A stretch of 64,000 nucleotides of DNA from Flavobacterium sp. (GTDB lineage: Bacteria; Bacteroidota; Bacteroidia; Flavobacteriales; Flavobacteriaceae). The translations under genes and the position numbers were made by a program. Each line of letters begins with the position of its first letter. The first letter of the stretch is position 1. Below are positions 25,977 through 43,999 of this stretch, one piece after another. The notes below the pieces were generated by a model. The model ran no database searches and was not told the origin of the DNA. It saw only the letters and a program-made list of their open reading frames with translations. The DNA lies in assembly GCA_042091515.1 (NCBI GenBank), contig JBELHH010000002.1, positions 62,450 through 126,449 on the forward strand, given 5' to 3'.

Positions 25977-26016
25977 AACACACGGTCAATTTTAATTGAT
26001 ATTTAATCTTAAAAGT

Positions 26017-26352
26017 ATGTCTAAAACATATTATGATCCAGCAGACCTTCGTAAGTTTGGTGCTATCACAGAATGGAATGAAGAACTAGGAAATAGGTTC
26101 TTTGAGTATTATGAAAAAGTTTTTGAGGAAGGGGCATTATCAGCTAGAGAAAAATCATTAATTGCTTTAGCGGTTGCTCACACAGAACAATGCCCATATT
26201 GTATTGATGCGTATACAAAAGATGGATTACAACGCGGAATTACTAAAGAAGAAATGATGGAGGCTGTTCATGTTGGTGCTGCCATTAAAAGTGGAGCCAC
26301 CTTAGTCCATGGAGTTCAAATGATGAACAAGGTCAATAAATTGGAAATGTAG
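26017..26352 (+). CDS. AhpD/carboxymuconolactone-decarboxylase-like, arsenosugar-associated peroxidase-like protein
   Basis: 112 aa with CxxC in HTEQCPYCIDAY. It ends 1 nt before arsS. The start is set at the ATG at 26017. Confidence 0.75.
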   Translation: MSKTYYDPADLRKFGAITEWNEELGNRFFEYYEKVFEEGALSAREKSLIALAVAHTEQCPYCIDAYTKDGLQRGITKEEMMEAVHVGAAIKSGATLVHGVQMMNKVNKLEM

Positions 26353-26353
26353 T

Positions 26354-27409
26354 ATGAGTAAGAAATCTCTTTTAGCAAGAAAAAACACACTCGCTAATTC
26401 AGAAAAACAATTAGAAATTTTATCTAATGGTATTTTTGCTAATGGTGAATTACCCACGTTTGAACAAAAAATCAAAGAGACCAATCAGTTTCCACTTCGT
26501 CCAAAAAAATTAGAAATTTTACAAATCAATCTTGGGTATATGTGTAATCAAGTATGTGCTCATTGTCATGTAGACGCGGGTCCAGACAGAAAAGAAATCA
26601 TGACCATTGAAACCATGCAACTATGTTTAGACGTTATCAAAAACACTGGAGCACATACGTTAGATCTAACTGGTGGTGCCCCGGAGATGAATCCGAATTT
26701 CAGATGGTTTGTAGAAGAAGCTTCAAAAATAGGAATCAAAGATTTTATTGTAAGATCTAACTTAACCATCATTAGAGCCAATAAAAAATACAATGATTTA
26801 CCAGAATTTTTCAAAAAATACAATATTCACGTTATAAGCTCGATGCCCCACTGGACAAAAGGGAAAACAGACAAACAACGTGGAAATGGAGTTTTTGACA
26901 AATCGATTAAAGCCTTGCAGCAATTAAATGATATTGGATATGGAGTTTCAGGAAGTGGTTTACGTTTAGATTTAGTTTATAATCCCTCAGGAGCATTTTT
27001 ACCAGGAGATCAAATGGCGCTAGAAACATCATTTAAAAAAACGTTAAGAGACGAGTTCAATATCCAATTTCATCATTTATTTACCATTACCAATTTACCA
27101 ATTAGCCGTTTTTTAGATTATTTAATCGCTTCAGAAAATTACGAAGATTATATGCATGCATTGGTAGAAGCTTACAACTCTGTAACTTTACCTAATGTAA
27201 TGTGCACTAATACGCTTTCTGTTAGCTGGGACGGGTGGTTGTATGACTGTGATTTTAATCAAATGCTTAATCTAAAAGTAGCCAGTAAAGTAACACACAT
27301 CTCAAAATACAGGGAAGATATTTTACAAAAAAGAAATATCATTATTGGTCAACACTGCTATGGCTGTACAGCAGGATCAGGAAGTAGTTGTCAAGGAACA
27401 GTCGTCTAA
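26354..27409 (+). CDS. arsS: Radical SAM / Cys-rich-tail enzyme, arsenosugar biosynthesis ArsS type
   Basis: Radical-SAM motif CNQVCAHC and C-terminal HCYGCTAGSGSSCQG tail, adjacent to an ArsM-like methyltransferase. Confidence 0.8.
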   Translation: MSKKSLLARKNTLANSEKQLEILSNGIFANGELPTFEQKIKETNQFPLRPKKLEILQINLGYMCNQVCAHCHVDAGPDRKEIMTIETMQLCLDVIKNTGAHTLDLTGGAPEMNPNFRWFVEEASKIGIKDFIVRSNLTIIRANKKYNDLPEFFKKYNIHVISSMPHWTKGKTDKQRGNGVFDKSIKALQQLNDIGYGVSGSGLRLDLVYNPSGAFLPGDQMALETSFKKTLRDEFNIQFHHLFTITNLPISRFLDYLIASENYEDYMHALVEAYNSVTLPNVMCTNTLSVSWDGWLYDCDFNQMLNLKVASKVTHISKYREDILQKRNIIIGQHCYGCTAGSGSSCQGTVV

Positions 27410-27422
27410 TCAAAATAAAAAA

Positions 27423-28391
27423 ATGAGTTATTTAGAAACCACAAAAAATGTATATAAAAAAGCGGCGTTAACACCAGATATTGGTTTATGCTGCACCACA
27501 AATCCTATTTGGGAATTACCGGGTCTAAAAATTCCGAAAATTATGCAAGAAATGAATTATGGATGTGGTTCTACAGTTCATGCTAGAGATTTAACCAATA
27601 ATCCAACTATGCTTTATGTTGGAGTGGGTGGGGGTATGGAATTATTACAGTTTTCTTATTTCAATCGTACAAAAGGAGGTGTGATTGGATTAGATGTTGT
27701 CGATGAAATGCTAGAAGCTTCTCTTAAAAACTTTGTAGAAGCAGAAAAAATGAATCCTTGGTTTAAAAGTAACTTTATAGACCTACGAAAAGGAGATGCT
27801 TTACACCTACCTGTAAAAGATAATTCAATTGATGTTGCTGCTCAGAATTGTTTATTTAATATTTTTAAATCTGATGACTTAACAAAAGCAGTTTCAGAAA
27901 TGTATCGAGTACTTAAACCTCATGGTCGTTTGGTAATGAGTGATCCAACATGCGAACAAGAGATGAATGATGAATTAAGAAATGATGAACGTCTACGGGC
28001 CCTCTGCCTCAGTGGAAGTTTATCCATATCTGATTACGTAAAAACATTAACTGATGCTGGATTTGGAACCATAGAAATCAGAGCTCGAAAACCCTACAGA
28101 ATATTAGATCCAAAAAATTACCCAACAGATAAAATCATCTATATAGAATCTATTGAAATTGCCGCTATTAAAGATCCAATGCCAAAAGATGGTCCTTGTA
28201 TTTTTACTGGAAAAGCAGCTATTTATTTTGGAAAAGAAGATTATTTTGATGATCAGGCTGGACATATATTACTTAAAAATCAACCCTTAGCCATTTGTGA
28301 TAAGACAGCCAATTCTTTAAATTCTTTAAAAAGAAATGATATTTTTATTTCACCGTCTACCTATCATTATGATGGGGGAGGATGCTGTTAA
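27423..28391 (+). CDS. arsM: SAM-dependent arsenite methyltransferase-like protein
   Basis: SAM motif I LYVGVGGG plus conserved-type cysteines (GLCC, NYGCG, QNCLFN). The start is set at the ATG at 27423; the track start overlaps arsS. Confidence 0.75.
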   Translation: MSYLETTKNVYKKAALTPDIGLCCTTNPIWELPGLKIPKIMQEMNYGCGSTVHARDLTNNPTMLYVGVGGGMELLQFSYFNRTKGGVIGLDVVDEMLEASLKNFVEAEKMNPWFKSNFIDLRKGDALHLPVKDNSIDVAAQNCLFNIFKSDDLTKAVSEMYRVLKPHGRLVMSDPTCEQEMNDELRNDERLRALCLSGSLSISDYVKTLTDAGFGTIEIRARKPYRILDPKNYPTDKIIYIESIEIAAIKDPMPKDGPCIFTGKAAIYFGKEDYFDDQAGHILLKNQPLAICDKTANSLNSLKRNDIFISPSTYHYDGGGCC

Positions 28392-28424
28392 ATAAATATC
28401 ACTTAGATTTTTTCACTGTGAAAT

Positions 28425-29033
28425 ATGACACAAAAAAGTAATAATTTATTATTAGTCTTTATCAAAAATCCAGAATTAGGAAAGGTGAAAACACGCTTAG
28501 CAAAAAGTATTGGTCATAATACTGCTTTAAAAATATATCATTATTTACTTCTTAGAACTCACCATATTACAAATCAAGTTTCTTGTCATAAAGCAGTGTA
28601 TTATTCTGATAAAATAATTGAAAAAGATCTATGGGATGTAAACTCTTATTTAAAGTATTTACAAAAAGGAGATGATTTAGGAATTAGAATGTTAAATGCT
28701 TTTAAGAACAGTTTTGAGACTGGTTATAAAAAAGTTATCGTGATAGGATCAGATCTATACGACTTAACGCCTCAGATCATAGAAGAGGCTTTTTTAAGTT
28801 TAAATACGAATGATTTTGTAATCGGTCCTGCAAAAGATGGTGGGTATTATCTGTTAGGGATGAAGAAACTTCAAACAACTATTTTTAAAAATAAAGCTTG
28901 GGGTACCTCTACCGTAAAAAAAGATACTTTAAATGACATCACAAATAAAAAAGTACATTTGTTAAAGGAACTAAATGACATAGATATCTTAGAAGATATT
29001 TCTCATCACCCAGCTTTTCAACATTTTCTATAG
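28425..29033 (+). CDS. DUF2064 / TIGR04282-like (CofC/MobA-fold) transferase
   Basis: Motifs GKVKTRL, DLGIRM, IGSDLYDL and GPAKDGGYYLLG. Confidence 0.75.
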   Translation: MTQKSNNLLLVFIKNPELGKVKTRLAKSIGHNTALKIYHYLLLRTHHITNQVSCHKAVYYSDKIIEKDLWDVNSYLKYLQKGDDLGIRMLNAFKNSFETGYKKVIVIGSDLYDLTPQIIEEAFLSLNTNDFVIGPAKDGGYYLLGMKKLQTTIFKNKAWGTSTVKKDTLNDITNKKVHLLKELNDIDILEDISHHPAFQHFL

Positions 29034-29038
29034 ATCGT

Positions 29039-29854
29039 ATGAAACAACAATATTTAAAAGAAACCATTGATTATTTAAAGAAAAATGGAGTTGAGAAACC
29101 CACTGTTGGAATTGTCTTAGGAACAGGCTTAGGGTCTCTCATAAATGAAATAGCCATAGAAATAGAAATCGATTATAAAGAGATTCCTCATTTCCCTCTG
29201 GCAACCGTTGAGTTTCACTCTGGGAAAATTATTTACGGAACCCTTTCTGGCAAAAAAGTAATTGTTATGTCTGGTCGTTTTCATTTATATGAAGGATATT
29301 CTCCTTGGGAAGTCACTTATGGGATTAGAACCATGCATGGTTTAGGAATTAGTAATTTACTAATCTCTAATGCTTCTGGAGCGATTAATCTAACCTACAA
29401 AAAAGGAGATCTTATGCTGCTTGAAGATCACATAAATTTACAAGGGAGTTCACCTATTGCTTTTAAAGGGGCTAATACTTTTGGTGCTATTTTTGTGGAT
29501 ATGTTAGCACCTTATTCTAAAGATTTAAATACGTGTATTAAACAAATTGCAATGGCATTAAAAATAAAACTTCATACAGGAGTATATGCAGGTGTTCTAG
29601 GGCCACAATTAGAAACAAGAGCGGAATATAGAATGTTACAAATTCTAGAAGCAGATGCTGTAGGAATGAGTACCGTTCCGGAAGTTATTGTTGCCAAGCA
29701 ACTCAACGTGCCTTGTGCGGCTATTTCTGTTCTAACGGATGAATGTGATCCAAAAAATTTAAAGCCTGTAAATATTCCTGACATCATAGAAGTTGCCGGA
29801 AAAGCTGAACCAAAAATGATTAAACTCTTTAAAAAAACTATTGAGATTTTATAG
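29039..29854 (+). CDS. Purine nucleoside phosphorylase (trimeric PNP/MTAP family)
   Basis: Motifs GRFHLYEGY, GPQLETRAE and MSTVPEV. Confidence 0.9.
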   Translation: MKQQYLKETIDYLKKNGVEKPTVGIVLGTGLGSLINEIAIEIEIDYKEIPHFPLATVEFHSGKIIYGTLSGKKVIVMSGRFHLYEGYSPWEVTYGIRTMHGLGISNLLISNASGAINLTYKKGDLMLLEDHINLQGSSPIAFKGANTFGAIFVDMLAPYSKDLNTCIKQIAMALKIKLHTGVYAGVLGPQLETRAEYRMLQILEADAVGMSTVPEVIVAKQLNVPCAAISVLTDECDPKNLKPVNIPDIIEVAGKAEPKMIKLFKKTIEIL

Positions 29855-30910: not shown

Positions 30911-31798
30911 ATGAATAAATATATAGACATTATAAAAAATTCTTATGTTGACTATTGGAACTATCTTCAAAAATCTGTTCTAATGGAACTCAACTGGGAA
31001 AATTATTTTTATGGTATTATTATTATATCAGTAGTAGTATGGTGTTTAGAGATTATTTTCCCATGGCGAAAGAATCAATCTATTATTAGAAAAGACTTTT
31101 GGTTAGACATATTTTATATGTTTTTTAATTTCTTTTTATTAAACTTAATTGTTCTCATTGCATTATCTAACGCTGCAGCAATTTTTTTTAATGATGTGTT
31201 ATCTTTAGTTGGTTTATCTATTAGTAATCTTCAAGTTTTTAATATTAATTCGTTCCCTTATTGGTTGAGAATATTGGTGTTTTTTGTAGTAATTGATTTT
31301 GTACAATGGTTTACTCACACTCTATTACATCGATATAGTTTTTTATGGAACTTTCACAAAGTACATCATTCGGTGAAACAAATGGGCTTTGCTGCTCATC
31401 TACGCTATCATTGGATGGAGCCTGTAATATACAATTCTATAAAGTATATTCCGTTAGCTATATTAGGTGGTTTTAACGCTCAAGATGTTGCTATCGTTCA
31501 CTTTTTTAACATCTCTATAGGACATTTAAATCATGCCAATATTAATTGGGATTATGGATTTTTAAAATATATTTTTAACAACCCTAAAATGCATATTTGG
31601 CATCATGCCAAAGAACTTCCAAAGGAAAAAAATAACGGTGTGAATTTCGCAATTACACTAAGTATTTGGGATTATTTATTTAAGACTAATTATATACCAT
31701 ATTCTGGAAGAGATATCGAGTTAGGTTTTGAAAATGATAATCTATTTCCTTCTTCATTTATTAAACAAGAAATGTACCCTTTTGGTAAAAAAGATTAA
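30911..31798 (+). CDS. Fatty acid hydroxylase / sterol desaturase-family membrane protein
   Basis: His boxes HTLLHR, HKVHH and HIWHH, plus TM segments. Confidence 0.8.
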   Translation: MNKYIDIIKNSYVDYWNYLQKSVLMELNWENYFYGIIIISVVVWCLEIIFPWRKNQSIIRKDFWLDIFYMFFNFFLLNLIVLIALSNAAAIFFNDVLSLVGLSISNLQVFNINSFPYWLRILVFFVVIDFVQWFTHTLLHRYSFLWNFHKVHHSVKQMGFAAHLRYHWMEPVIYNSIKYIPLAILGGFNAQDVAIVHFFNISIGHLNHANINWDYGFLKYIFNNPKMHIWHHAKELPKEKNNGVNFAITLSIWDYLFKTNYIPYSGRDIELGFENDNLFPSSFIKQEMYPFGKKD

Positions 31799-32694: not shown

Positions 32695-33975
32695 CTAAAA
32701 ATACTGTCCTATCCCAAAGACAAATCCTTGTGTTCCATTGTTGGTAATACCATAGCCATAATCTATTCTAAATACTGCATTATAAATTTTCCTATGAATA
32801 AATCGCAGCCCTAGTCCAGGGTATATTCTTACATTATTAGGATCGAAAAAATCATCAATATCACCTCCAGGGTTTCTCCAAGTACCTGCATCAACAAACG
32901 CATTACCTTGAATTGTTATATTATTTTTTTTATAGAGAATATATCTGTATTCTGTATTTAAGACAACAACGCCAGTTCCTCGATCAATAATATTTCCAAC
33001 ACCTCTAATATTAACATTATTATCTACTGAAAAAGGGGCAAAAGGAGAATCAGCATTCGTGGCAAAACCAATCCGTACTTTATTAGCCCAATTTCCATTT
33101 TTACCAATCCGTTTAAAATAGAAAAAATCGTTCCACCAAATAGAAAAGTCAGGAAATGTAGTACCAAATGCTATTACATGTTGAAAGTTGAACAAAGTTC
33201 TAAAACCCGAAATACTCTCATAATAATAGTCTAATGCATTATATTCATATATTAATTTGAACAACGACTTATCTATTGTTAATGCTTGTGGGATCTCTGG
33301 ATTTATAGCTCCTGATTTATATTGATATTTTTCTGTAAAAAAAGTAAATCCTAGTTGTATTTTATTTCTCAATGATAATTGATGGAGCCCTAATAGTTCA
33401 TAGGATCTATTATTGTATTTATAATCTGATGATGTATCATCAAAAAAAACAGGCTCTTGAGTTGTTAAATTCTGATAATTAAAAGCCAATCCAAAGGTAT
33501 TTCCAAAGGTATTTCCAAATAAAAATGGAGCATTAAAATTGATCGCATAAGAATCATAAATATCTCGTTGGAAAAATCCACCAATAGAAATATTCTTTCC
33601 TAGAAAATTAAATTCATTCACCCCTATTCTATACGCAAATTCATTGTTATTTGTTGTGTGAAAATTTGCAAAAGGAATAATGGTAAAATTCTCTTCAATA
33701 GTAATCGTAATGTTATAGTGTTTTATATATGATTCAAAGACACGGAAATAAGCATGAGAGATCGATGGCAATCTTTTTAATAAAGCAATATCCTTGTCTA
33801 GTTGAACAGAATCCAATCCTTGTCCTACTTTGGTAGTAATGATTTTTTTAACAAAAGAAACTTTCATTTTTTTAGTTCCTAGAATCTTTATATCATTGAC
33901 AATATGGTTCTGACTAAATGAGATAATTGAGTAGAATAAAAAAAGAGGGAGAATATTTTTTTTATAAAAGATCAT
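32695..33975 (-). CDS. Omp85/BamA-type outer membrane protein with a single POTRA-like domain
   Basis: Signal peptide, a POTRA-like N-terminus (IKILGTKKMKVSFVKKII...) and a beta-strand-rich body ending in GIGQYF, with the aromatic C-terminus typical of OMPs. Confidence 0.65.
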   Translation of the reverse strand: MIFYKKNILPLFLFYSIISFSQNHIVNDIKILGTKKMKVSFVKKIITTKVGQGLDSVQLDKDIALLKRLPSISHAYFRVFESYIKHYNITITIEENFTIIPFANFHTTNNNEFAYRIGVNEFNFLGKNISIGGFFQRDIYDSYAINFNAPFLFGNTFGNTFGLAFNYQNLTTQEPVFFDDTSSDYKYNNRSYELLGLHQLSLRNKIQLGFTFFTEKYQYKSGAINPEIPQALTIDKSLFKLIYEYNALDYYYESISGFRTLFNFQHVIAFGTTFPDFSIWWNDFFYFKRIGKNGNWANKVRIGFATNADSPFAPFSVDNNVNIRGVGNIIDRGTGVVVLNTEYRYILYKKNNITIQGNAFVDAGTWRNPGGDIDDFFDPNNVRIYPGLGLRFIHRKIYNAVFRIDYGYGITNNGTQGFVFGIGQYF

Positions 33976-34037: not shown

Positions 34038-35042
34038 TTAATTTACATTGTATAACTGCTGGATTAGAAGTTCAACAGGTTTGTTTTGTGGAGTAAATCT
34101 ATTGTTCTCTAACCCACCCACTTCATCATGTCTATAAAACCACTTCCATAAAAACCCTCCAGCAAACCAATCCTCATTCCAAAACTGATTATAAATTGCT
34201 TGGAATCCATTTTTTTGAGCTTCTAAGTTAACCTGTCCAGACACCCGTTTAGAGTCCCAAGGTTTTTCACCTGTATAATCGATACTCCTATATCCAAATT
34301 CAGTAAATAGAATTGGTTTCTGAAATTGAGTTTGTACTTTTTTAATTTCATTCTTATGACCTTGCCACCCTAACTCGAAATCAATAATTGAAGGTGATTT
34401 TAAATCAGAAAGAGGAAAATAGGCATCAATGCCAATATAATCTAATTGATTCCAAAAAGGAATTCGTTTATATTCATCCCAATTAGCAGCATAAGTTATT
34501 TTTCCGCCATATACTTTCTTAACTTCTTTGATAAGAGATGTCCAAAAATGAGGTCTATTAATAACAAATTTTTCTAATTCTGTTCCCAAACAAAATAATT
34601 CGGCATTTATCTCTTGCGCTACTTTAGCGTATAATAAAATAAATGAAGAATACGAATCTTCAAGAGCTTTCCATTGATCTTCCGTATCCATTAAAATATG
34701 GCCTGTAAACTCACCTTTCCAGACCCAAATTTGGGGTTTAATCATAATTTTCAAGCCACTATGACGAATAACTTTTGCATATTGTTTAATACCCTCTTTT
34801 CTTTCCCCAAACCATTGCCTATTAACATTAAATTGTATTGTAGGTGATGATACTTCTCTTATAAAACCAAAAGGCATTAAAGCAACATAATTAGCATTCG
34901 TTTTTAACAATGGACCCATCTGTAAACTAGTGATACTGTCTTTTGAAGCTACAAAACTAATTCCATTTATTTTTTGTGCTTTTGAATGGCAAGCATACAG
35001 CAACAAAAAAAGAATCATCAAAAAAAAGTTAGTCATTTTCAT
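34038..35042 (-). CDS. Clan GH-A-like TIM-barrel glycoside hydrolase lipoprotein
   Basis: Lipobox LLYAC. Candidate acid/base residue in LGTELEKF and candidate nucleophile in LFTEFGY. I cannot assign a GH family from the sequence. Confidence 0.55.
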   Translation of the reverse strand: MKMTNFFLMILFLLLYACHSKAQKINGISFVASKDSITSLQMGPLLKTNANYVALMPFGFIREVSSPTIQFNVNRQWFGERKEGIKQYAKVIRHSGLKIMIKPQIWVWKGEFTGHILMDTEDQWKALEDSYSSFILLYAKVAQEINAELFCLGTELEKFVINRPHFWTSLIKEVKKVYGGKITYAANWDEYKRIPFWNQLDYIGIDAYFPLSDLKSPSIIDFELGWQGHKNEIKKVQTQFQKPILFTEFGYRSIDYTGEKPWDSKRVSGQVNLEAQKNGFQAIYNQFWNEDWFAGGFLWKWFYRHDEVGGLENNRFTPQNKPVELLIQQLYNVN

Positions 35043-35066: not shown

Positions 35067-35951
35067 CTAAAAAAGTGCTCTTAAGCCTATGTTAAATGTT
35101 TCTCCCAACCCTGTATTATTTCCTCTAATAAAATCTGTATATAACATCTCAATATTCAAAATTTTGGTGAGTTGATATTTTGCACCACTGCCTATAGCAG
35201 TAAAGTTTTGAGTAAAATCATTCCCTAGATCAAATCGTTGAGAGTGCTGAGCCAAGACCAATACGGTAAATTTATTACTTGGAAAATAACTTAAAAAAAC
35301 ACCCGGTAATATATTAAGACTGTTATTTGCAAAGCTTTCCTTTTTATCTCCAAAGCTAAACTCAGTATTCAATTCTGTAAAAATTTGCCAATCTCCACTT
35401 AGGAAAGTATGGTCATAAAAAAATCGATTCTGAAAAATAAACCCTTTTTGATCTAGGAAAATAGAGTTCTGATTACTTTCTTCTTTTACCAGCGGAATAT
35501 GAAATGCTGTTTGGATAGTGAAATTCGAGATGCCCTTTAGTGGGTTGAATTTAATTGCTGGAGCAAACGATGTAAATCCTGATCGTTCAGTAATCCCGTC
35601 ATTTCCAAAACTCAAAGAGGCCAACGCTTTTCTTCCTGCAATAACATTAGATCTAAATTCTAGTAATAAGCCTATATTAATAGAACTATTTTCTGAAACT
35701 CCTGTAAAAACATCTATTGTTGAAGTAAAAAATGTTTCTCTTGGTTTTATTCTTTTACTACCGTTTGGCCCAAATAAATCTTCTGTTTCTGTGTATAAGT
35801 TATTAAACCATTTAATATCCCATTGATCTTTATGTAAAAGTTTAGAAGGGGTATAGGTTAGAATAACACTTTTTGTGTCTAGCGCACTATCATCCTGGGA
35901 AAACCCTTTAAAACTAATAAAAACAAACGTAAGAAGTAAAAATATTCTCAT
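35067..35951 (-). CDS. Putative outer-membrane beta-barrel protein
   Basis: Signal peptide, alternating-hydrophobicity strands, and a C-terminal ...IGLRALF. Confidence 0.45.
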   Translation of the reverse strand: MRIFLLLTFVFISFKGFSQDDSALDTKSVILTYTPSKLLHKDQWDIKWFNNLYTETEDLFGPNGSKRIKPRETFFTSTIDVFTGVSENSSINIGLLLEFRSNVIAGRKALASLSFGNDGITERSGFTSFAPAIKFNPLKGISNFTIQTAFHIPLVKEESNQNSIFLDQKGFIFQNRFFYDHTFLSGDWQIFTELNTEFSFGDKKESFANNSLNILPGVFLSYFPSNKFTVLVLAQHSQRFDLGNDFTQNFTAIGSGAKYQLTKILNIEMLYTDFIRGNNTGLGETFNIGLRALF

Positions 35952-36111: not shown

Positions 36112-37461
36112 ATGGAACATATCGTTATCATTGGAAATGGTATTTCAGGAGTTACACTTGCTAGACATATTCGAAAAAATTCAGCTAAAGAAATTACCAT
36201 TGTTTCAGCAGAAACCGATTATTTCTTCTCACGTACAGCACTAATGTATGTATACATGGGGCATTTGAAGTTTGAACATACTCAGCCCTACGAATCTTGG
36301 TTCTGGGAGAAGAATCGCATTCATTTAAAAAAAGGATATGTAACTAAAATTGACATTGCAAAAAAGGAACTCATCTTTTCAAATAAAGAAAGCCTTTCTT
36401 ATGATAAATTAGTGTTAGCAACTGGCTCAAAACCAAACAAATTTGGTTGGCCAGGACAAGAGTTAAAAGGTGTAATGGGAATGTACCACAAGCAAGATTT
36501 AGAAAACCTAGAAAAACATGCCCCTAATAATACTGTCTGTAAAAGAGCCATTATTGTTGGAGGGGGGTTGATAGGTATAGAACTGGCTGAAATGTTGCAT
36601 TCTAGAGATATTCCTGTTACTTTTTTAGTTCGTGAAAAAAGTTTTTGGAGTGGCGTTTTGCCTAATGGAGAAAGCGAAATGATTACCAGACATATACTAA
36701 ATAATCATATCGATTTACGATTAAATACTAATTTAAAAGAAATAAAATCTGATAAAAGCGGCCATGTGAAATCTGTAATTGTTGAAGAAACAGGAGAAGA
36801 AATTTTATGTGATATTGTGGGGTTAACCGCTGGTGTTTCTCCAAATATAGATGTTGTAAAAAACGCTATGATAGAAACAAATCGTGGAGTATTAGTAAAT
36901 CGCTTTTTAGAAACAAACATTGAGGATATATATGCTATTGGTGATTGTGCAGAACAAAGAGAAGCTATTGGCAATAGAAGAGCAATAGAAGCTGTCTGGT
37001 ATACTGGAAGAATGATGGGAGAAACTTTAGCACAAACTATTTGTGGAAATAAAATTAAATACACACCAGGACATTGGTTTAATTCAGCAAAATTTTTTGA
37101 TATAGAATATCAAACTTATGGATGGGTTTTTAATGAAAACATAAGGCCTCAATACGAAAAACATTTTCACTGGAAACACAAAGATGACAACAAGTGTATT
37201 ACTATTGCTTACCATAAAGATTCAAATCTTTTCTTAGGAATTAATACATTTGGAATAAGGATGCGTCATGAGATTTTTGACAAATGGCTCACGGAGAAAA
37301 GAGATGTCCATTATATCTTACAATATTTAAGTGATGCCAATTTTGATCCAGAATTTTATACACTTTATGAGAAAGAAATCATAAAAAAATTTAATCAAGA
37401 AAACAACACTTCTATTCAATCAAAAAGAAAAAGTTGGAAACGAATATTCACCAGAGCCTAA
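36112..37461 (+). CDS. NAD(P)/FAD-dependent pyridine nucleotide-disulfide-type oxidoreductase
   Basis: Two dinucleotide-binding motifs, VIIGNGISG and IIVGGGLIGIELA, plus a GD motif (AIGDCAE). Confidence 0.85.
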   Translation: MEHIVIIGNGISGVTLARHIRKNSAKEITIVSAETDYFFSRTALMYVYMGHLKFEHTQPYESWFWEKNRIHLKKGYVTKIDIAKKELIFSNKESLSYDKLVLATGSKPNKFGWPGQELKGVMGMYHKQDLENLEKHAPNNTVCKRAIIVGGGLIGIELAEMLHSRDIPVTFLVREKSFWSGVLPNGESEMITRHILNNHIDLRLNTNLKEIKSDKSGHVKSVIVEETGEEILCDIVGLTAGVSPNIDVVKNAMIETNRGVLVNRFLETNIEDIYAIGDCAEQREAIGNRRAIEAVWYTGRMMGETLAQTICGNKIKYTPGHWFNSAKFFDIEYQTYGWVFNENIRPQYEKHFHWKHKDDNKCITIAYHKDSNLFLGINTFGIRMRHEIFDKWLTEKRDVHYILQYLSDANFDPEFYTLYEKEIIKKFNQENNTSIQSKRKSWKRIFTRA

Positions 37462-37466
37462 AACTT

Positions 37467-39089
37467 ATGAAAATACTACAACAACTGGGGTTTATAATTT
37501 TTTTAACCGGACTCACTCTTTTTACAGCAACTATTTTTACCGGTTCCTTTACTCTAACCCCTTTAGAAATAGAAAATTTCATCGCTCAAAAAGGGTATAA
37601 AAATGAACGAATCAAAGATGAACTTTTAAAAGCTACTCAGACAGATAAAAACCTCAATATTTTTGAATTCTCAACGCGTGTTCGCTCTGCTTTTAAAGCA
37701 TCAAATGATTATTACGATCATTTAATTGCTACCTATGACGCCGAAAAAAAATGGGATAAAAAAGGAGCTCAATATCAATTTAAAATTTATGAAAAACCAC
37801 ATACCTTCAGTTACGAACTTGCCAAAAAAGCAGGCGATGGCATCCTCAAAGAAAATATAGGAATTACATGGTTTTTAACCTTTGGTTTAGGGATTATCGG
37901 AGCCTTACTTTTTATTCTTCCAAATCTAATTATACTGGGAAAACCCGGAATAAAAAATAATGGCATTTATTTAGAGTCGAGTACAAATCGTGGTTTAATT
38001 GCTTGGTTGGTATTAATTTACTTGGTTTCATTTTACTTGGTCTTGTACTTTATGCCTGATTATGTAGTCAACTGGACATATATTCTTGATCCTATTAGTA
38101 TATTTTTAAATGGCGGGGAAGCCAGTCAATGGTTTGTTTATGGATTTTTATATTGTGTTGTGATGCTTGTTATGGGGGTGCGAATGTATATTAAATACAG
38201 GCATAATAAATATCAAATTATACGAACAACGTCTGTTCTATTTTTTCAGATTGTTTTTGCATTCTTACTTCCTGAAATAATGACCAGTTTAAATATGCCT
38301 GGTTATGATTTCAAAAATGCTTTTCCTTTAGATTATGATTTCTTTTTTGATTGGAATTTAGATCAATTAAGAAATAGTGGCAGTATAGGGTTGTTTATTC
38401 TTGTTTGGGGAATTGTATTAACACTTATTATCGTACCAGTGATGGTGTATTTCTTTGGAAAAAGATGGTATTGCTCTTGGGTTTGTGGTTGTGGAGGGCT
38501 AGCCGAAACATTAGGAGACCCTTACAGACAACACGCTGACAAAAGTCTGAATGCATGGAAATTAGAGCGATGGTTGATTCATTCAGTATTATTATTTTCT
38601 TTAATTATGACAATAGTCACCTTGTATTGTTATTTTTCAGGAACACAAAGTTTACTAGGAATACAATCTCAGTGGATCAAAGACACTTATAGTTTTTTAA
38701 TTGGAGCTTGGTTTGCAGGTGTTATTGGTACTGGTTTTTATCCCATTTTTGGAAACAGAGTATGGTGTCGTTTTGGATGTCCACTAGCTGCATATCTCGG
38801 GCTCGTTCAGCGATTTAAATCTAGGTTTAGAATAACTACTAATGGTGGGCAGTGCATCTCTTGTGGAAATTGTTCTACCTATTGTGAGCAAGGAATCGAT
38901 GTTAGAGCTTATGCACAAAAAGGAGAAAATATTGTTCGTTCTAGCTGTGTTGGTTGCGGTATTTGCTCGGCAGTATGTCCAAGGGGCGTTTTAAAATTAG
39001 AAAATGGTCCAGAAGAAGGACGGATTAATCCTACTGAGATATTGTTAGGAAATAATATAGATTTAATTGAGTTGATTAATAAAAAATAA
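37467..39089 (+). CDS. Polytopic membrane 4Fe-4S protein (NapH/CcoG-like polyferredoxin)
   Basis: CSWVCGCGG and CRFGCPLAA motifs, plus two ferredoxin motifs: CISCGNCSTYC (38853-38885) and CVGCGICSAVCP (38946-38978). The start is set at the ATG at 37467. Confidence 0.8.
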   Translation: MKILQQLGFIIFLTGLTLFTATIFTGSFTLTPLEIENFIAQKGYKNERIKDELLKATQTDKNLNIFEFSTRVRSAFKASNDYYDHLIATYDAEKKWDKKGAQYQFKIYEKPHTFSYELAKKAGDGILKENIGITWFLTFGLGIIGALLFILPNLIILGKPGIKNNGIYLESSTNRGLIAWLVLIYLVSFYLVLYFMPDYVVNWTYILDPISIFLNGGEASQWFVYGFLYCVVMLVMGVRMYIKYRHNKYQIIRTTSVLFFQIVFAFLLPEIMTSLNMPGYDFKNAFPLDYDFFFDWNLDQLRNSGSIGLFILVWGIVLTLIIVPVMVYFFGKRWYCSWVCGCGGLAETLGDPYRQHADKSLNAWKLERWLIHSVLLFSLIMTIVTLYCYFSGTQSLLGIQSQWIKDTYSFLIGAWFAGVIGTGFYPIFGNRVWCRFGCPLAAYLGLVQRFKSRFRITTNGGQCISCGNCSTYCEQGIDVRAYAQKGENIVRSSCVGCGICSAVCPRGVLKLENGPEEGRINPTEILLGNNIDLIELINKK

Positions 39090-39565
39090 TGGGTGTAAAG
39101 TTTAATCTAATCCTGTCATTTCTTCTAATATATACTGTTGGAGTTTGTCAAAAAAAATATCAAAAGGATTACTTTAATAATGGGAATTTAAAAGCAGAGG
39201 GATGGATTAAAGACTCAAAAAAACATGGATACTGGATCTTTTATTATCCAAATGGAAATAAAAAAAAAGAAGGTCACTTTAAAAACAATATCACTATTAA
39301 ATATTGGTATTTTTACCGACAAGACGGATCAAAAGAAAAAGAAGGTCACTATCACAATGATCAACAACATAAATGGTGGTTATATTTCGATACTTTTGGA
39401 AATGTGAATCATAAATGTCAATTAAATAAGAATCAAAAAAACGGGTACTGTCTAATTTATAAAAAAAATAAATTGATTAAAGCGTCAAAATATCATAACG
39501 ATAAAAAAATCAAAGAATGGACCAGTGTCTCTTCTTTTAAAAGAGAGAATAAGCGACCCAATTAA
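39089..39565 (+). CDS. MORN-repeat-variant (YwqK-like) lipoprotein
   Basis: Lipobox TVGVC and repeated G.W..YY.NG.KK.EG.. units. Its ATG overlaps the previous TAA. Confidence 0.7.
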   Translation: MGVKFNLILSFLLIYTVGVCQKKYQKDYFNNGNLKAEGWIKDSKKHGYWIFYYPNGNKKKEGHFKNNITIKYWYFYRQDGSKEKEGHYHNDQQHKWWLYFDTFGNVNHKCQLNKNQKNGYCLIYKKNKLIKASKYHNDKKIKEWTSVSSFKRENKRPN

Positions 39566-39567
39566 AA

Positions 39568-40263
39568 ATGGTAACACAAAATATTAAAGTAATCATCCCT
39601 GCGTTTAACGAAGAAGATTCCATAACTAAGGTGATCACTGACATCCCTAAAATAGTGAATGAAATTATTGTTGTTAATAATAATTCCTCAGATAATACCG
39701 AAAATAACGCTTTGAAAGCAGGGGCTACTGTATTAACTGAAAAAAGAAAAGGATACGGATATGCTTGTTTAAAAGGAATGGATTATATCGCTCAACAAGA
39801 AGGCAGTCCGGATATTATTGTTTTTTTAGATGGAGATTATTCAGATTACCCAGAACAGTTACTCGAAATTATTAACCCAATACTAACAAAGAAGATCGAT
39901 TTTGTAATCGGTGCTAGAGTTAAAAAACTTAGAGAATTAGGTTCCATGACTCCGCAACAGATTTTTGGAAATTGGCTCGCTACTTTCCTAATGGCTCTTT
40001 TTTTTAAGGCAACCTTTACCGATTTAGGGCCCTTCAGAGCTATCAAATATGAAAAGCTTTTAGCATTAAAAATGCAAGATAAAACGTATGGATGGACTGT
40101 AGAAATGCAGTTAAAAGTTCTAAAACAAGGAATCACTTATGTTGAAATTCCTGTTAAGTATAGAAACAGGATTGGGGTTTCTAAGGTGTCAGGAACCCTA
40201 AAAGGCTCTATCATGGCTGGTATAAAAATTTTAGGTTGGATTTTTAAATACAGTTTTAAGTAA
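39568..40263 (+). CDS. GT2 glycosyltransferase, polyprenyl-phosphate sugar synthase (Dpm1/ArnC)-like
   Basis: Motifs IIPAFNEED, NSSDNT and LDGDYSD; 231 aa. Confidence 0.85.
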   Translation: MVTQNIKVIIPAFNEEDSITKVITDIPKIVNEIIVVNNNSSDNTENNALKAGATVLTEKRKGYGYACLKGMDYIAQQEGSPDIIVFLDGDYSDYPEQLLEIINPILTKKIDFVIGARVKKLRELGSMTPQQIFGNWLATFLMALFFKATFTDLGPFRAIKYEKLLALKMQDKTYGWTVEMQLKVLKQGITYVEIPVKYRNRIGVSKVSGTLKGSIMAGIKILGWIFKYSFK

Positions 40264-41753
40264 TGATTCTAATTTATAGTATTATTGTCATTTATTCGCT
40301 AGCACTCATTCTTATTTTCATCTATGCTTTAGCACAATTGAACTTACTATTTAACTATGTAAGTGCTCATAAAAAAGAAGAGACTAGTCATCAATTTGAT
40401 TTAACAAATTCAGAAGAAACTCCGTTTGTAACAATACAACTCCCTGTTTATAATGAGTTGTATGTTATGGAACGTTTGTTAGACAATATTGCTCAATTAG
40501 AATATCCCAATGAAAAGTTAGAAATTCAAGTCTTAGATGATTCTACCGATGAATCAATTATAGCCACCAAAAACAAAATTAATGAATTACAGAACAGAGG
40601 CATCAATATTCAACATCTCAGAAGAAGCAACCGAAAAGGCTTTAAAGCTGGAGCTTTAAAAGAAGGATTGGTGAATGCTAATGGTGAATTTATTGCCATT
40701 TTTGATGCCGATTTTTTACCTGGACCTGATTGGTTGTTGCAAACTATTCCTTATTTTAAAAACCCTAAAATAGGGGTTGTACAAACACGTTGGGGGCATC
40801 TTAATAGAAATTACTCTACGCTTACTAAAATTCAAGCTTTTGCCTTAGATGCCCATTTTACTCTAGAGCAAGTAGGCAGGAATAGTAAAGGGCATTTTAT
40901 CAATTTTAATGGAACAGCTGGTATATGGCGTAAAGAATGTATTTTAGATGCAGGTAATTGGGAAGGAGATACTCTTACCGAAGACTTAGACTTAAGCTAT
41001 AGAGCTCAATTAAAAAACTGGAAATTTAAGTATTTAGAGCATGTAAAAACACCTGCAGAATTACCGGTGATTATCAGTGCTGCAAGATCTCAACAATTTA
41101 GATGGAATAAAGGAGGAGCAGAGAATTTTCAAAAAATGGCAAAACGGGTTCTTTTTTCTAAAAATATCTCTATAAAAACTAAAATTCATAGTTTGTTGCA
41201 TTTGTTAAATAGCTCTATGTTTTTAATGATTTTCATCGTGGCAATTTTAAGTATTCCTATGTTGTATATTAAAAACGAATATGCTCATTTAAGACCTTAT
41301 TTTTATGCAATGAGTTTCTTTGTTATAAGCACGATTATCTTTTTCATTTGTTATTGGTTTATGTATAAGAAAAGCTATGGGAAAGGGATTAAAAATTTCT
41401 TACGATATATTGTTGCTTTTATAACTTTTTTTACAATTGCAATGGGATTCTCTTTGCACAATTCAATTGCAGTTTTGGAGGGGCATCTGGGTAAAAAAAG
41501 TGAATTTATAAGAACCCCAAAATTTAATATTAAAACCCTAAAAGATCACTGGAAAAGTAATAAGTATATCAGAAAAAAGCCCTCTGTTCATGTAATTATA
41601 GAAGGGATACTAACCCTGTACTTTGCATTTGGTCTTTACAGTGCTTTTGTGGTAGGAAACCAAGGGGGTGATTTTGGACTTTTCCCTTTTCACCTAATGC
41701 TTTTCATTGGTTTTGGATATGTTTTTTCTAAATCTATTTTTTCTAAATCCTGA
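40263..41753 (+). CDS. Processive GT2 beta-glycan synthase (cellulose synthase/CslA-like)
   Basis: Motifs DDSTD, FDADF, TEDLDLS and QQFRWNKG (QxxRW), with N- and C-terminal TM helices. Confidence 0.85.
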   Translation: MILIYSIIVIYSLALILIFIYALAQLNLLFNYVSAHKKEETSHQFDLTNSEETPFVTIQLPVYNELYVMERLLDNIAQLEYPNEKLEIQVLDDSTDESIIATKNKINELQNRGINIQHLRRSNRKGFKAGALKEGLVNANGEFIAIFDADFLPGPDWLLQTIPYFKNPKIGVVQTRWGHLNRNYSTLTKIQAFALDAHFTLEQVGRNSKGHFINFNGTAGIWRKECILDAGNWEGDTLTEDLDLSYRAQLKNWKFKYLEHVKTPAELPVIISAARSQQFRWNKGGAENFQKMAKRVLFSKNISIKTKIHSLLHLLNSSMFLMIFIVAILSIPMLYIKNEYAHLRPYFYAMSFFVISTIIFFICYWFMYKKSYGKGIKNFLRYIVAFITFFTIAMGFSLHNSIAVLEGHLGKKSEFIRTPKFNIKTLKDHWKSNKYIRKKPSVHVIIEGILTLYFAFGLYSAFVVGNQGGDFGLFPFHLMLFIGFGYVFSKSIFSKS

Positions 41754-43105
41754 TGAATTTCTGTCAAAAAAGCCGCTCTATTTTAGCTGTCCTTTTGAGT
41801 ATAGGGTTGTATTCTTTCTTTGCATACCACCTAGAAAGAACTAATTTTTTATACCTATGTACATTATATCTTAGTTTATTTATTCCTTTTTTTTACTTTG
41901 TGAAAAACAGCCAGTTAAATTTTTATTTTTTGGCCGGGTTAGCCATTTTATTTCGATTCCTTTTCGTAGTTGCCATCCCTAATTTATCACAAGATTTTTA
42001 TCGATTTATATGGGATGGAAGAATGATTTTAGAAGGATTAAATCCTTATATCTCTCTTCCCAAAACATTTATTGAGCAAGGGAATTCACCCATCGAGCAA
42101 GCGACTGAGTTGTATGCAGGCATGGGAAGTTTTAACGGCAGTCATTTTACAAATTATCCACCAGTAAATCAGTTAAATTTTTTAATCGCTGCTATTGTTG
42201 CTAACTCAAGTATTTTGGGGTCAGTTGTTATATTACGTTTACAAATTATTTTAGCTGATATTGGAATTATTTATTTTGGTAAAAAAATATTAGAAAAGCT
42301 ACATTTACCCATTCATCATATCTTCTTATACGCTTTAAATCCATTTGTTATTATTGAACTAACAGGTAATTTACACTTTGAATCTGTGATGCTTTTTTTC
42401 TTGATTTGGAGTTTGTATTTATTATTTCAGAAAAAGTGGATCTGGGCTGCACTATTACTAGGGGTGTCAGTCTCTGTTAAATTAATTCCTTTACTCTTCC
42501 TGCCTTTATTTTATCAATGGTTTACAAAGCAAGATTTCAGAAAAGGGGTGGTGAGGTTTCTTTTTTTTGGTGGGATTATCCTTCTAACTAATATTATTTT
42601 ATTTGTTCCCTTTTTATCGTCAGAACTTATCTCTAGTTATTCAAATTCGATTGGGTTATGGTTTCGTAATTTTGAATTCAACGCCAGTATTTATTTTATC
42701 GCAAGAGAAATTGGAAGGCTCTTTAGAGGGTATAACGAAATTGCCATTATTGGAAAAATTATCCCTGCTGTTGTTATTGTTGTTTTATTGATGATCTCTT
42801 TTTTCAGAAAAAACAGACAGCCACAGCAACTCATTACTGCATTACTACTAGGGATCTCTTTTTACTATTTCACCTCAACAACTATTCATCCGTGGTATTT
42901 GGCAACCCTTGTATTGCTATGCGTATTTACCAACTATCGATATCCTATTGTATGGAGTGTAGTAATTATTTTAAGTTATCAAGCGTATGCTAACAGTCCT
43001 TGGGAAGAGAACCTATGGTTATTGATCCTAGAATACGTTGTGGTTTATGGTTTTCTATTGCGGGAAATAATTCAATTAAAAAAGAATTCCTTCTCAATTA
43101 AATAA
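41753..43105 (+). CDS. Polytopic GT-C-like (DUF2029/GT87-like) membrane glycosyltransferase
   Basis: More than 10 TM segments, with acidic residues in the first loop (SQDFYRFIWDGRM). Its ATG overlaps the previous TGA. Confidence 0.6.
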   Translation: MNFCQKSRSILAVLLSIGLYSFFAYHLERTNFLYLCTLYLSLFIPFFYFVKNSQLNFYFLAGLAILFRFLFVVAIPNLSQDFYRFIWDGRMILEGLNPYISLPKTFIEQGNSPIEQATELYAGMGSFNGSHFTNYPPVNQLNFLIAAIVANSSILGSVVILRLQIILADIGIIYFGKKILEKLHLPIHHIFLYALNPFVIIELTGNLHFESVMLFFLIWSLYLLFQKKWIWAALLLGVSVSVKLIPLLFLPLFYQWFTKQDFRKGVVRFLFFGGIILLTNIILFVPFLSSELISSYSNSIGLWFRNFEFNASIYFIAREIGRLFRGYNEIAIIGKIIPAVVIVVLLMISFFRKNRQPQQLITALLLGISFYYFTSTTIHPWYLATLVLLCVFTNYRYPIVWSVVIILSYQAYANSPWEENLWLLILEYVVVYGFLLREIIQLKKNSFSIK

Positions 43106-43162: not shown

Positions 43163-43999
43163 ATGGATTTATCAAAAATAAAAATGGTTGTTTCTGATAT
43201 GGATGGGACCTTACTCAATTCTAAAGAAGAAGTTAGTCATTTGTTTTTTGAGCAGTTCAATAAACTTCAGAAACTTGGAATTCATTTTGTTGCAGCAAGT
43301 GGTCGTCAATATGAAAGTATTGCTCAAAAACTCAGCCCGATAAAAGATAAAATTACCATTGTAGCAGAAAATGGTGCGATTATTAAAAGAAAAGATCAAA
43401 CGCTTCTTTTACAAGTTTTAGATGCACAAAAGGTTATTAAACTGATTCCTACTTTAAGGCGTATTGATAATGCCTATATCATTTTATGTGGTGAGGAAAA
43501 AGCTTTTATCGAATCAAACGATCAAAAATTCATTACTATGTTTCAAGAATATTATCGTTCCCATGAAATCGTTAACGATTTAACAAGTGTCCCACTCACG
43601 ACATCTATTCTTAAAATTGCGATATATCATCCTGAGTCTTCAGAACAATTTATTTATCCTCATGTTCAAAAATTTTCTTATGATTTTCTATTAAAAATCT
43701 CTGGCAAAAACTGGTTAGACCTATCAGGGCAAAATTCTAATAAAGGCACTGCCATTCAATATCTTCAAAAAAAGATGTACATCACTCCAGAACAAACGAT
43801 GGTCTTTGGAGATTATTTAAATGATTTAGAAATGCTAAATGTTGCCCATTTTAGTTATGCAATGAAAAATGCACACAGTGAGGTTAAAAAAACCGCTCGT
43901 TTTATCACAGATAGCAATACTAATTTTGGGGTTGAAAAAATAGTAGATCAAGTGATTAAAGCCACTTCTCTTTACTCATCAAAAGAAACAGTACTCTGA
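43163..43999 (+). CDS. Cof-type HAD-IIB phosphatase
   Basis: Motifs DMDGTLL, SGRQ and GDYLNDLEM. Confidence 0.85.
   Translation: MDLSKIKMVVSDMDGTLLNSKEEVSHLFFEQFNKLQKLGIHFVAASGRQYESIAQKLSPIKDKITIVAENGAIIKRKDQTLLLQVLDAQKVIKLIPTLRRIDNAYIILCGEEKAFIESNDQKFITMFQEYYRSHEIVNDLTSVPLTTSILKIAIYHPESSEQFIYPHVQKFSYDFLLKISGKNWLDLSGQNSNKGTAIQYLQKKMYITPEQTMVFGDYLNDLEMLNVAHFSYAMKNAHSEVKKTARFITDSNTNFGVEKIVDQVIKATSLYSSKETVL

Follow-up and report, generated by a model that had tools for sequence, protein, structure and literature searches.

A conserved six-gene operon of Flavobacteriales places a flavin and iron-sulphur redox pair beside three glycosyltransferases

Gene order at the locus

We analysed a 64,000-nucleotide stretch of a contig from a marine Flavobacterium sp. 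(JBELHH010000002.1; hereafter the window), in which positions 36112-43105 of the plus strand hold a tightly packed run of genes. An earlier reading, made from the sequence alone, had counted seven genes here and described them as an NAD(P)H/flavin adenine dinucleotide (FAD) oxidoreductase and a NapH-like polyferredoxin joined to a membrane glycosylation module. Both the open reading frame (ORF) list and a reading of the sequence give six ORFs, and the sequence-only reading itself named five junctions and six products. The run opens with a gene for a flavoprotein (36112-37461, 449 residues) and one for an iron-sulphur (Fe-S) membrane protein (37467-39089, 540 residues), together referred to as the redox pair. 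A gene for a MORN protein follows (39089-39565, 158 residues), and then come three glycosyltransferase (GT) genes, the GT trio, encoding a small GT2 enzyme (GT2a, 39568-40263, 231 residues), a processive GT2 enzyme (GT2b, 40263-41753, 496 residues) and a GT-C enzyme (41753-43105, 450 residues).

Neighbouring genes of the run either overlap or nearly touch. The flavoprotein and Fe-S genes are separated by 5 nt (TAA-AACTT-ATG, 37461/37467) and the MORN and GT2a genes by 2 nt (TAA-AA-ATG, 39565/39568), while stop and start codons overlap between the Fe-S and MORN genes (TAATG, 39087-39091), between GT2a and GT2b (TAATG, 40261-40265) and between GT2b and the GT-C gene (TGATG, 41751-41755). Checked against the sequence, all five junction strings of the sequence-only reading are correct as quoted. 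Likewise, every motif that it quoted is present in the translations (GNGISG, GGGLIG, CSWVCGCGG, CRFGCPLAA, two CxxCxxCxxxC, DDSTD, DADF, TED and QQFRW), and its functional assignments of all six proteins hold in family profiles, solved-structure matches and a GT-C fold search. For the Fe-S gene the mechanical ORF list gives a start at TTG 37434; the start at ATG 37467 is backed by the N-terminal consensus MKxIKxxGL of 53 homologues.

No terminator-like hairpin was found on the plus strand within 36112-43105, base composition is even across the block (about 31-33% G+C), and most related loci keep the same gene order; for these three reasons we regard the operon as going beyond chance. Promoter scans were uninformative either way: sigma-70-type hits were fewer than expected from shuffled sequence, and the Bacteroidota TAnnTTTG box occurred five times where 6.5 were expected, the 160-nt spacer before the run having no copy. 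We conclude that 36112-43105 is a real, conserved six-gene operon and probably a functional unit of Flavobacteriales.

A gene for a Cof-type HAD phosphatase (43163-43999, plus strand) begins 57 nt after the GT-C gene and thus lies outside the run. It was considered as a seventh gene and rejected, as a LacI regulator lies between the HAD and GT-C genes in Polaribacter and the HAD gene is missing from most loci. Direct adjoining of the two was seen in a few loci only (L032, L044 and L063).

The redox pair and the glycosyltransferases

The flavoprotein matches Pfam Pyr_redox_2 with 172.8 bits, and its nearest solved relatives are ferredoxin, rubredoxin and putidaredoxin reductases as well as CoA-disulfide reductases (CoADR). 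It comprises two dinucleotide-binding folds (GNGISG and GGGLIG), a feature of the ferredoxin/rubredoxin-NAD(P)+ reductase branch. We found in it no transmembrane (TM) segment, no CxxxxC and no Cys42-type redox cysteine, and its first 140 residues contain no cysteine. Judged by its sequence, it is a cytoplasmic NAD(P)H/FAD protein of the type that passes electrons to an Fe-S partner.

The Fe-S membrane protein matches the Fer4_5 and Fer4 dicluster families. Its best NCBIfam family, NapH/MauN TIGR02163, gives 61.4 bits against a cut-off of 213, and the NapH equivalog NF007013 gives 53 bits against a cut-off of 234. Hydropathy, loop charge and a manual assignment of the eighth helix point to eight TM helices with both termini inside and all cysteine motifs at the cytoplasmic face. 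TM1 is followed by a periplasmic insert of 111 residues, helical throughout, which is not conserved and is missing in the 389-residue homologue of locus L086. Among 53 sequences of 44-85% identity, no variation occurs in C336-x3-C340-G-C342, in C434-x3-C438-P or in two CxxCxxCxxxC motifs. The latter two (CISCGNCSTYC and CVGCGICSAVC) follow the last TM helix and are typical of two cytoplasmic [4Fe-4S] ferredoxin clusters. NapH is defined by CX3CP motifs, of which NapH/MauN proteins have two. Here, the second motif (CRFGCP) has this form, whereas the first (CSWVCGCGG) is CX3CGC, as it also is in 59 of the 69 library representatives of at least 380 residues. The YCSWVCGCGGLAET signature is a family mark of the Fe-S protein.

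To compare gene neighbourhoods we used 80 species-level genome loci anchored on the Fe-S gene, all of them Flavobacteriales-like. The flavoprotein gene lies directly upstream of the Fe-S gene in 80 of the 80. A NapG-like gene was not found next to the Fe-S gene, whose constant neighbour is the cytoplasmic flavoprotein. Since the two proteins are always paired, and since the Fe-S clusters and the five-cysteine site face the cytoplasm, the flavoprotein is best taken as the electron input of its partner; sequence comparison strongly supports that it feeds electrons to the eight-TM Fe-S protein.

Relatives of the Fe-S protein from a wider survey lend further weight to this hand-over. A profile search of 1.84 billion representatives returned 342 relatives at E ≤ 1e-30. 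Among the top 150, 21 are at least 640 residues long; an N-terminal GxGxxG is present in 20 of these 21, and CX3CGC is kept in 16 of those 20. All ten long homologues that were scanned (680-903 residues) consist of an N-terminal Pyr_redox flavoprotein fused to the Fe-S core. The Fe-S core of one fusion, P0435, is 37% identical to that of the window protein over 325 residues (E = 9e-62). Its flavoprotein half bears only a remote resemblance to the flavoprotein of the window (24%, E = 5e-7), and the fusions are therefore analogous, not orthologous, to the pair. They support a direct passage of electrons from NAD(P)H through flavin to Fe-S in this protein family. Polypeptides in which a Pyr_redox_3-type domain is fused to the CX3CGC core include P0435, P0442, P0455, P0464, P0482, P0485, P0493, P0498, P0500 and P0503.

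Across its own seven-TM core, the Fe-S protein family holds about 130 invariant or near-invariant residues, which suggests an enzyme or a quinone site, not a mere ferredoxin. An AlphaFold2 (AF2) model of the protein reached a predicted local distance difference test (pLDDT) value of 77, with a poor ferredoxin domain, and gave no PDB fold match at E ≤ 0.001. Haem-based transmembrane electron transfer was considered and found unsupported, the protein having only one conserved histidine and no CxxCH. No haem or periplasmic cysteine is conserved among the homologues. The sequence-only reading had suggested that the pair might supply electrons to a periplasmic partner; such a transfer is possible, but with all Fe-S motifs cytoplasmic and neither haem nor periplasmic cysteine conserved it finds no support.

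Between the two modules, the MORN protein has an N-terminal hydrophobic segment followed by Cys20, in keeping with a signal sequence. Its MORN_2 match is weak (23 bits), but the proteins encoded at the corresponding place in the distant loci L081 and L087 exceed the cut-off (51-57 bits). We take the window protein to be exported, possibly as a lipoprotein.

Three glycosyltransferases follow the redox pair, and their classes are strongly supported: a Dpm1/AglJ-like enzyme, a BcsA/Csl-like processive enzyme and a GT-C enzyme with the fold of polyprenyl- or dolichyl-phosphate-hexose users. The first, GT2a, matches Pfam Glycos_transf_2 (PF00535) with 71.8 bits and is a GT2 enzyme of the GT-A type. 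It is closest to the clade of polyprenyl/dolichyl-phosphate hexose synthases, its best NCBIfam matches being AglJ (1.9e-32), PpgS (5e-17) and a dolichyl-phosphate-hexose transferase family (2.5e-15); it stays under the equivalog cut-offs of AglJ (112.8 versus 325 bits) and PpgS (62 versus 370 bits). Among solved structures it matches GpgS (5e-8) and DPMS (3e-5). We found no TM segment in GT2a, which is soluble or peripheral. We regard it as a candidate polyprenyl-phosphate hexose synthase of the Dpm1/AglJ/PpgS type.

GT2b contains DDSTD, DADF, TED and QQFRW together with one N-terminal and five C-terminal TM segments, as is characteristic of processive synthases. Its nearest NCBIfam families are PgaC (1.9e-34; 119 bits versus a cut-off of 422) and CelA (2.8e-30; 105 versus 699), both cut-offs being missed, and it matches solved BcsA structures at 3e-18. 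Nine diverse homologues share 134 invariant columns. Neither a PilZ domain in GT2b nor a BcsB or PgaD gene at the locus was found. By profile and motif comparison, GT2b is a membrane-integrated processive GT2 of the BcsA/PgaC/Csl type.

The GT-C protein matches Pfam GT87 with 33.8 bits (cut-off 25) and thus falls into the GT87/MptA_B family. Its AF2 model (pLDDT 91.8) was matched by Foldseek with a probability of 1.00 to GPI-mannosyltransferase I with bound dolichyl-phosphate-mannose (Dol-P-Man), ALG6, ALG3 and PimE, at TM-scores of 0.5-0.65. Its first periplasmic loop holds two aspartates, D81 and D88 (SQDFYRFIWDG), that do not vary among 45 sequences. The model makes the protein a candidate periplasmic transferase dependent on polyprenyl-phosphate-hexose. 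The idea of the sequence-only reading that a polyprenyl-phosphate-sugar synthase feeds a GT-C enzyme beside a processive synthase is sound in its logic.

Conservation of the operon and its surroundings

GT2a and GT2b genes lie within 5 kb downstream of the redox pair in 60 of the 72 Fe-S-anchored loci with enough sequence. For a view from the other side, an alignment of diverse synthase homologues was searched against metagenome contigs, giving 80 further, synthase-anchored loci; in 44 of these GT2a-GT2b is present and the contig extends 5 kb or more upstream, and 35 of the 44 have the redox pair there. The sequence-only reading had named merely occasional adjacency of the redox pair and the GT module as a finding that would speak against it. 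With adjacency at about 80% from either anchor, adjacency is the rule, though not obligatory.

The order is also kept at a distance. On three long contigs (L081, L086 and L087) the flavoprotein, Fe-S protein, MORN, GT2a, GT2b and GT-C genes follow each other in full, and a fourth (L088) differs by the absence of the MORN gene. Protein identity on these four contigs is only 34-63%, and GH113 and/or DUF547 genes lie upstream. Three other distant long contigs carry the GT trio alone. The MORN gene was detected in 45 of the 80 Fe-S-anchored loci.

As a side observation, 19 synthase-like GT2 genes (L090, L101, L121, L143 and 15 others), 47-69% identical to the queries, lack a GT2a gene at its usual place upstream. 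Most of them stand apart from both the GT trio and the redox pair and probably represent a paralogous subfamily; L153 and L168, also among the 19, are rearranged clusters that still contain the redox pair.

Two features of the surroundings were missed by the sequence-only reading, although they form the context that best constrains function: a GH113 homologue and an arsenosugar-type (hereafter ars-type) gene set. The latter (25269-29854, plus strand) lies 6-11 kb upstream of the operon and comprises DUF547, a TIGR04169 peroxidase-like gene, ArsS, ArsM, TIGR04282 and a purine nucleoside phosphorylase (PNP). Its NCBIfam family members, at 25996-29033, exceed the curated cut-offs (ArsS 431 bits versus 300, ArsM 567 versus 400, TIGR04169 191 versus 120, TIGR04282 202 versus 134). 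None of the operon genes scores as TIGR04167, NF038099, TIGR04169, TIGR04282 or TIGR04283; only GT2a gives a match to TIGR04283, at 34 versus 182 bits.

At least one ars-type member lies within the 10-kb flanks of 35 of the 80 Fe-S-anchored and 25 of the 80 synthase-anchored loci, in at least eight gene orders. In L149, L150 and L165, ArsS (not seen in L165), TIGR04282, PNP, ArsM, DUF547 and TIGR04283 run head-to-tail into the flavoprotein gene. L072 combines the full ars-type set with the redox pair and has no GT trio. L097, which has no redox pair, is a tight co-directional array of AhpD-like, ArsS, TIGR04282, PNP, a small ORF, GT2a, GT2b and GT-C genes. A gene for the rhodanese NF045521 ('rhoda_near_glyco') and TIGR04282 follow the GT-C gene in L107, L125 and L155. 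In L169 (Flavobacterium faecale), rhodanese, TIGR04282, FA-hydroxylase, DUF547, TIGR04283, lipoprotein, flavoprotein, Fe-S protein, a small ORF, GT2a, GT2b and GT-C genes are co-directional; ArsS and ArsM were not found there within 10 kb. That each module alone adjoins the same set is the strongest argument that redox pair, GT trio and ars-type set serve one pathway.

The rhodanese gene lies at L107:11806-12309 and L125:11758-12258 beside the GT trio and at 4411-4872 in L169; the 64-kb window has no copy of it. The DUF547 gene of the window (25269-25976, plus strand, 96 bits) heads the ars-type set. In other loci DUF547 takes the same place or directly precedes the flavoprotein gene (L069:7560-8303, L081:1864-3495, L087:1948-3585, L169:6392-7150), some loci having two copies. 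In the literature we found DUF547 in gene lists only, mostly from plants, and no tested function.

Between the ars-type set and the operon lies a gene for a di-iron membrane enzyme of the FA_hydroxylase family (30911-31798, plus strand; Pfam 91 bits, OlsE-like 86 versus a cut-off of 475). Other loci, among them L025, L032, L044, L055, L066 and L169, likewise have a gene of this family flanked by the ars-type set on one side and the flavoprotein gene on the other. In the window, a gene of the 3-keto-disaccharide-hydrolase family (PF06439; 29869-30657, minus strand) stands between the PNP and FA_hydroxylase genes; a tblastn search found no counterpart of it in 88 loci.

Three genes for envelope proteins lie on the minus strand directly upstream of the operon. 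The GH113 gene (34038-35042), divergently transcribed, encodes a lipoprotein with a Pfam GH113 match of 163.7 bits (cut-off 27). It matches solved endo-beta-1,4-mannanases at E = 1e-27 with both catalytic glutamates aligned (GTELE and FTEFG), which makes it a candidate beta-1,4-mannanase that would act on the product of the operon. A GH113 gene is present in 64 of the 80 Fe-S-anchored loci and also in the distant L081, L086 and L088. Next to it, at 35067-35951, lies a gene for a 294-residue exported protein with a signal peptide and an aromatic C-terminus, which has no Pfam or NCBIfam match. Weakly assigned, it is probably an outer-membrane beta-barrel and possibly an export pore; homologues occur in 45 of the 80 loci, and L049 has a putative 293-residue counterpart between the operon halves. 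The third gene (32695-33975) encodes an Omp85-like outer-membrane protein with a single POTRA domain, judged by weak POTRA and BamA C-terminal matches. It is present in 46 of the 80 loci, and its tie to the operon is one of association only.

Proposed function and comparison with known systems

With moderate confidence, we propose that the operon encodes a membrane unit for building a glycan and decorating it in the periplasm, equipped with its own NAD(P)H electron input, and that this unit is the membrane arm of an ars-type neighbourhood. Electrons would pass from NAD(P)H to the flavoprotein and on to the Fe-S membrane protein at the cytoplasmic face. GT2b would synthesise and translocate a beta-glycan, while GT2a would load a hexose onto polyprenyl phosphate; the GT-C enzyme would then use the polyprenyl-phosphate-hexose as donor on the periplasmic side, adding sugar to this glycan or to a different acceptor. 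Trimming and export of the product could be the task of the GH113 enzyme together with the outer-membrane proteins. The electrons of the redox pair may end on an acceptor that this pathway requires, either lipid-soluble or a metal(loid); a quinone, an arsenical, the lipid carrier and the di-iron hydroxylase encoded nearby are candidates. At the envelope, the unit would probably handle a product or acceptor of the ars-type pathway (ArsM, ArsS, TIGR04169/04282/04283, rhodanese NF045521, DUF547 and FA-hydroxylase). The glycan might be beta-1,4-mannan-like because the conserved neighbouring glycanase belongs to GH113, a tentative assignment and more probably wrong than right.

A more specific proposal, which we consider doubtful, is that the unit performs late membrane-bound steps of organoarsenical sugar metabolism, acting after ArsM, ArsS, the nucleoside phosphorylase and TIGR04282/04283. 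In this scheme polyprenyl phosphate would receive a dimethylarsinoyl-pentose or a partner sugar; once the loaded carrier had been flipped, the GT-C enzyme would pass the sugar on to the envelope beta-glycan made by the synthase, while the Fe-S protein, driven by NAD(P)H, would reduce the arsenical or the lipid carrier. If true, this would be a route by which arsenic is fixed or exported via the cell envelope.

Several observations weigh against a glycan-building unit with its own electron input and a tie to the ars-type set. All loci sampled belong to one order, and shared descent inflates the counts. The redox pair has no GT genes nearby in 12 of the 72 loci (Dokdonia, Aquimarina, Nonlabens, UBA4465 and some uncultured lineages), and GT2a-GT2b has no redox pair within 10 kb in 9 of the 44 synthase-anchored loci. 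No ars-type gene is present in the flanks of 45 of the 80 Fe-S-anchored loci or of L081 and L086-L088, and the arsenic link may therefore be lineage-specific or regulatory. Every equivalog cut-off for named enzymes is missed, no GtrA- or Wzx-like flippase was identified, and the beta-mannan idea has the GH113 neighbour as its only basis. The window sequence was matched in DNA metagenomes only and in no RNA run. In L049 (Polaribacter), the operon is interrupted after the Fe-S gene by two genes on the opposite strand, and the MORN gene comes only after them. The physical coupling of redox pair and glycosyltransferases that the sequence-only reading had claimed is not supported, given such opposite-strand splits in some Polaribacter loci and the occurrence of each half alone. 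The genes inserted in L049 (11691-13600) encode a 333-residue exported, lipoprotein-like protein and a 293-residue exported, barrel-looking protein, and they leave two transcription units; gene spacing indicates the same insertion in the Polaribacter loci L020 and L056.

The alternative that survives best, although we think it rather unlikely, is a generic envelope system for a beta-glycan or glycolipid with no chemical link to arsenic. The ars-type neighbours would then owe their position to inherited order or to co-regulation, for instance when phosphate is limiting and arsenate uptake goes along with membrane remodelling. Full operons without a flanking ars-type gene (L081, L086, L087, L088 and many Polaribacter and Tenacibaculum loci) fit this explanation, as do the homologue of lipid hydroxylases in the same neighbourhood and the sampling of one order, in which shared ancestry inflates counts. 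However, the sets stay together through eight or more different gene orders, and tight co-directional fusions exist with either module alone (L097, L072, L149/L150/L165 and L169), which is more than inherited order would preserve.

It is unlikely, in our view, that the redox pair serves another client in place of the glycan pathway. It could form a donor chain for the di-iron FA_hydroxylase, comparable to rubredoxin reductase, rubredoxin and AlkB, or prime the radical-SAM enzyme ArsS. The flavoprotein family does include rubredoxin and ferredoxin reductases, a gene for the FA_hydroxylase, a possible client of the pair, repeatedly occupies the interval from the ars-type set to the flavoprotein gene, and of the 12 loci where the pair occurs without the GT trio, three have ars-type genes. 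Yet the FA_hydroxylase gene is found in about a quarter of the flanks compared with about 80% for the GT genes, and the roughly 130 (near-)invariant core residues of the Fe-S protein suggest an enzyme or quinone site of its own. ArsS as the main client is weakened because its adenosylation of DMAs(III) to DDMAA is reported to be redox-neutral after priming (PMC13598754).

Still less is to be expected from a third explanation, in which the Fe-S protein works like CcoG and uses NAD(P)H to reduce a metal(loid): its CX3CGC/CX3CP five-cysteine site would bind copper or an arsenical (arsenate or DMAs(V)) and reduce it at the cytoplasmic membrane face. CcoG, a cupric reductase, is itself a member of the Fer4_5 family to which the Fe-S protein belongs. 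An extra, invariant vicinal cysteine (CGC) replaces the usual proline of CX3CP, and the link to ArsM and ArsS would agree with such a role. Against this, the Fe-S family also occurs without a nearby ars gene, and the tight link to three glycosyltransferases would be left unexplained. Mere proximity of redox pair and GT trio, with no functional tie between them, is improbable: both separations are seen and opposite-strand genes can intervene, but adjacency is about 80% from both anchors and the order is kept at 34-63% identity, with the MORN gene between the modules in L081, L086 and L087.

We return to the glycan-building and decorating unit with its own electron input. Each of its parts is a recognisable enzyme class, and the combination of an NAD(P)H/FAD/Fe-S membrane input with a synthase and a polyprenyl-phosphate-sugar/GT-C pair is new. 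The sequence-only reading had known of no described pathway of this kind, and our literature searches found no description either. Flavobacteriales, an order prominent in degrading marine polysaccharides, conserve the combination, which offers an entry point to an envelope glycan of Flavobacteria. It also gives access to the function of a distinct Fer4_5 subfamily (the 342 representatives at E ≤ 1e-30) with no solved structure. Furthermore, it may open the late steps of bacterial arsenosugar metabolism, a pathway in which only ArsM and ArsS have tested functions and for whose late genes no description was found in the literature.

Compared with known systems, the Fe-S protein is like NapH, MauN, NosR and CcoG in having TM helices and cytoplasmic-face cysteine motifs followed by two [4Fe-4S] ferredoxin motifs. 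It differs by the CX3CGC form of its first motif, by eight TM helices instead of four, and by an NAD(P)H flavoprotein partner in place of NapG or quinol. Overall it resembles NapH and CcoG, lacks four of the five features examined for membership, and has no solved structural relative. The neighbourhood described in NCBIfam for arsenosugars (ArsS TIGR04167, ArsM NF038099, TIGR04169, TIGR04282, TIGR04283 and NF045521) lies beside the operon or is fused to it in many loci, whereas the six operon genes are outside those families and also occur without them nearby.

In mycobacteria, DprE1 and DprE2 convert decaprenyl-phosphate-ribose to decaprenyl-phosphate-arabinose, that is, redox chemistry on a polyprenyl-phosphate pentofuranose precedes its use by the GT-C enzymes Emb and Aft. 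The likeness to the operon is conceptual only: there is no sequence relationship, DprE1 is a flavoenzyme of the vanillyl-alcohol-oxidase type, and no Fe-S membrane protein takes part. The CslA-GlxA locus of Streptomyces includes a glycanase, CslZ. GlxA is an extracytoplasmic copper radical oxidase, whereas the FAD and Fe-S cofactors of the operon are cytoplasmic and membrane-bound. CslA is described as a cellulose-synthase-like GT2 that works with the redox enzyme GlxA (PMC11022532), a precedent for linking a synthase to redox chemistry.

With the BcsA/BcsZ and PgaC systems, and putatively with plant CslA mannan synthases, the operon shares the D, DxD, TED and QxxRW motifs, C-terminal TM helices, an adjoining glycanase (here GH113) and outer-membrane proteins nearby. 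It is without PilZ, BcsB, BcsC and PgaB, and GT2b, with 496 residues, is much smaller than BcsA. Relative to the three-component systems GtrA/GtrB/GtrC, ArnC/ArnT, CsbB/YfhO and mycobacterial Ppm1 or PpgS with PimE/MptA/Rv3779, the operon adds a processive synthase and a redox pair; a small GtrA-type flippase gene was not seen, and no equivalog cut-off was reached. What it has in common with them is the pairing of a Dpm1-like GT2 with a GT-C enzyme; the model of the latter matches PimE and the enzymes with bound Dol-P-Man or dolichyl-phosphate-glucose (Dol-P-Glc), and GT2a is nearest to AglJ and PpgS.

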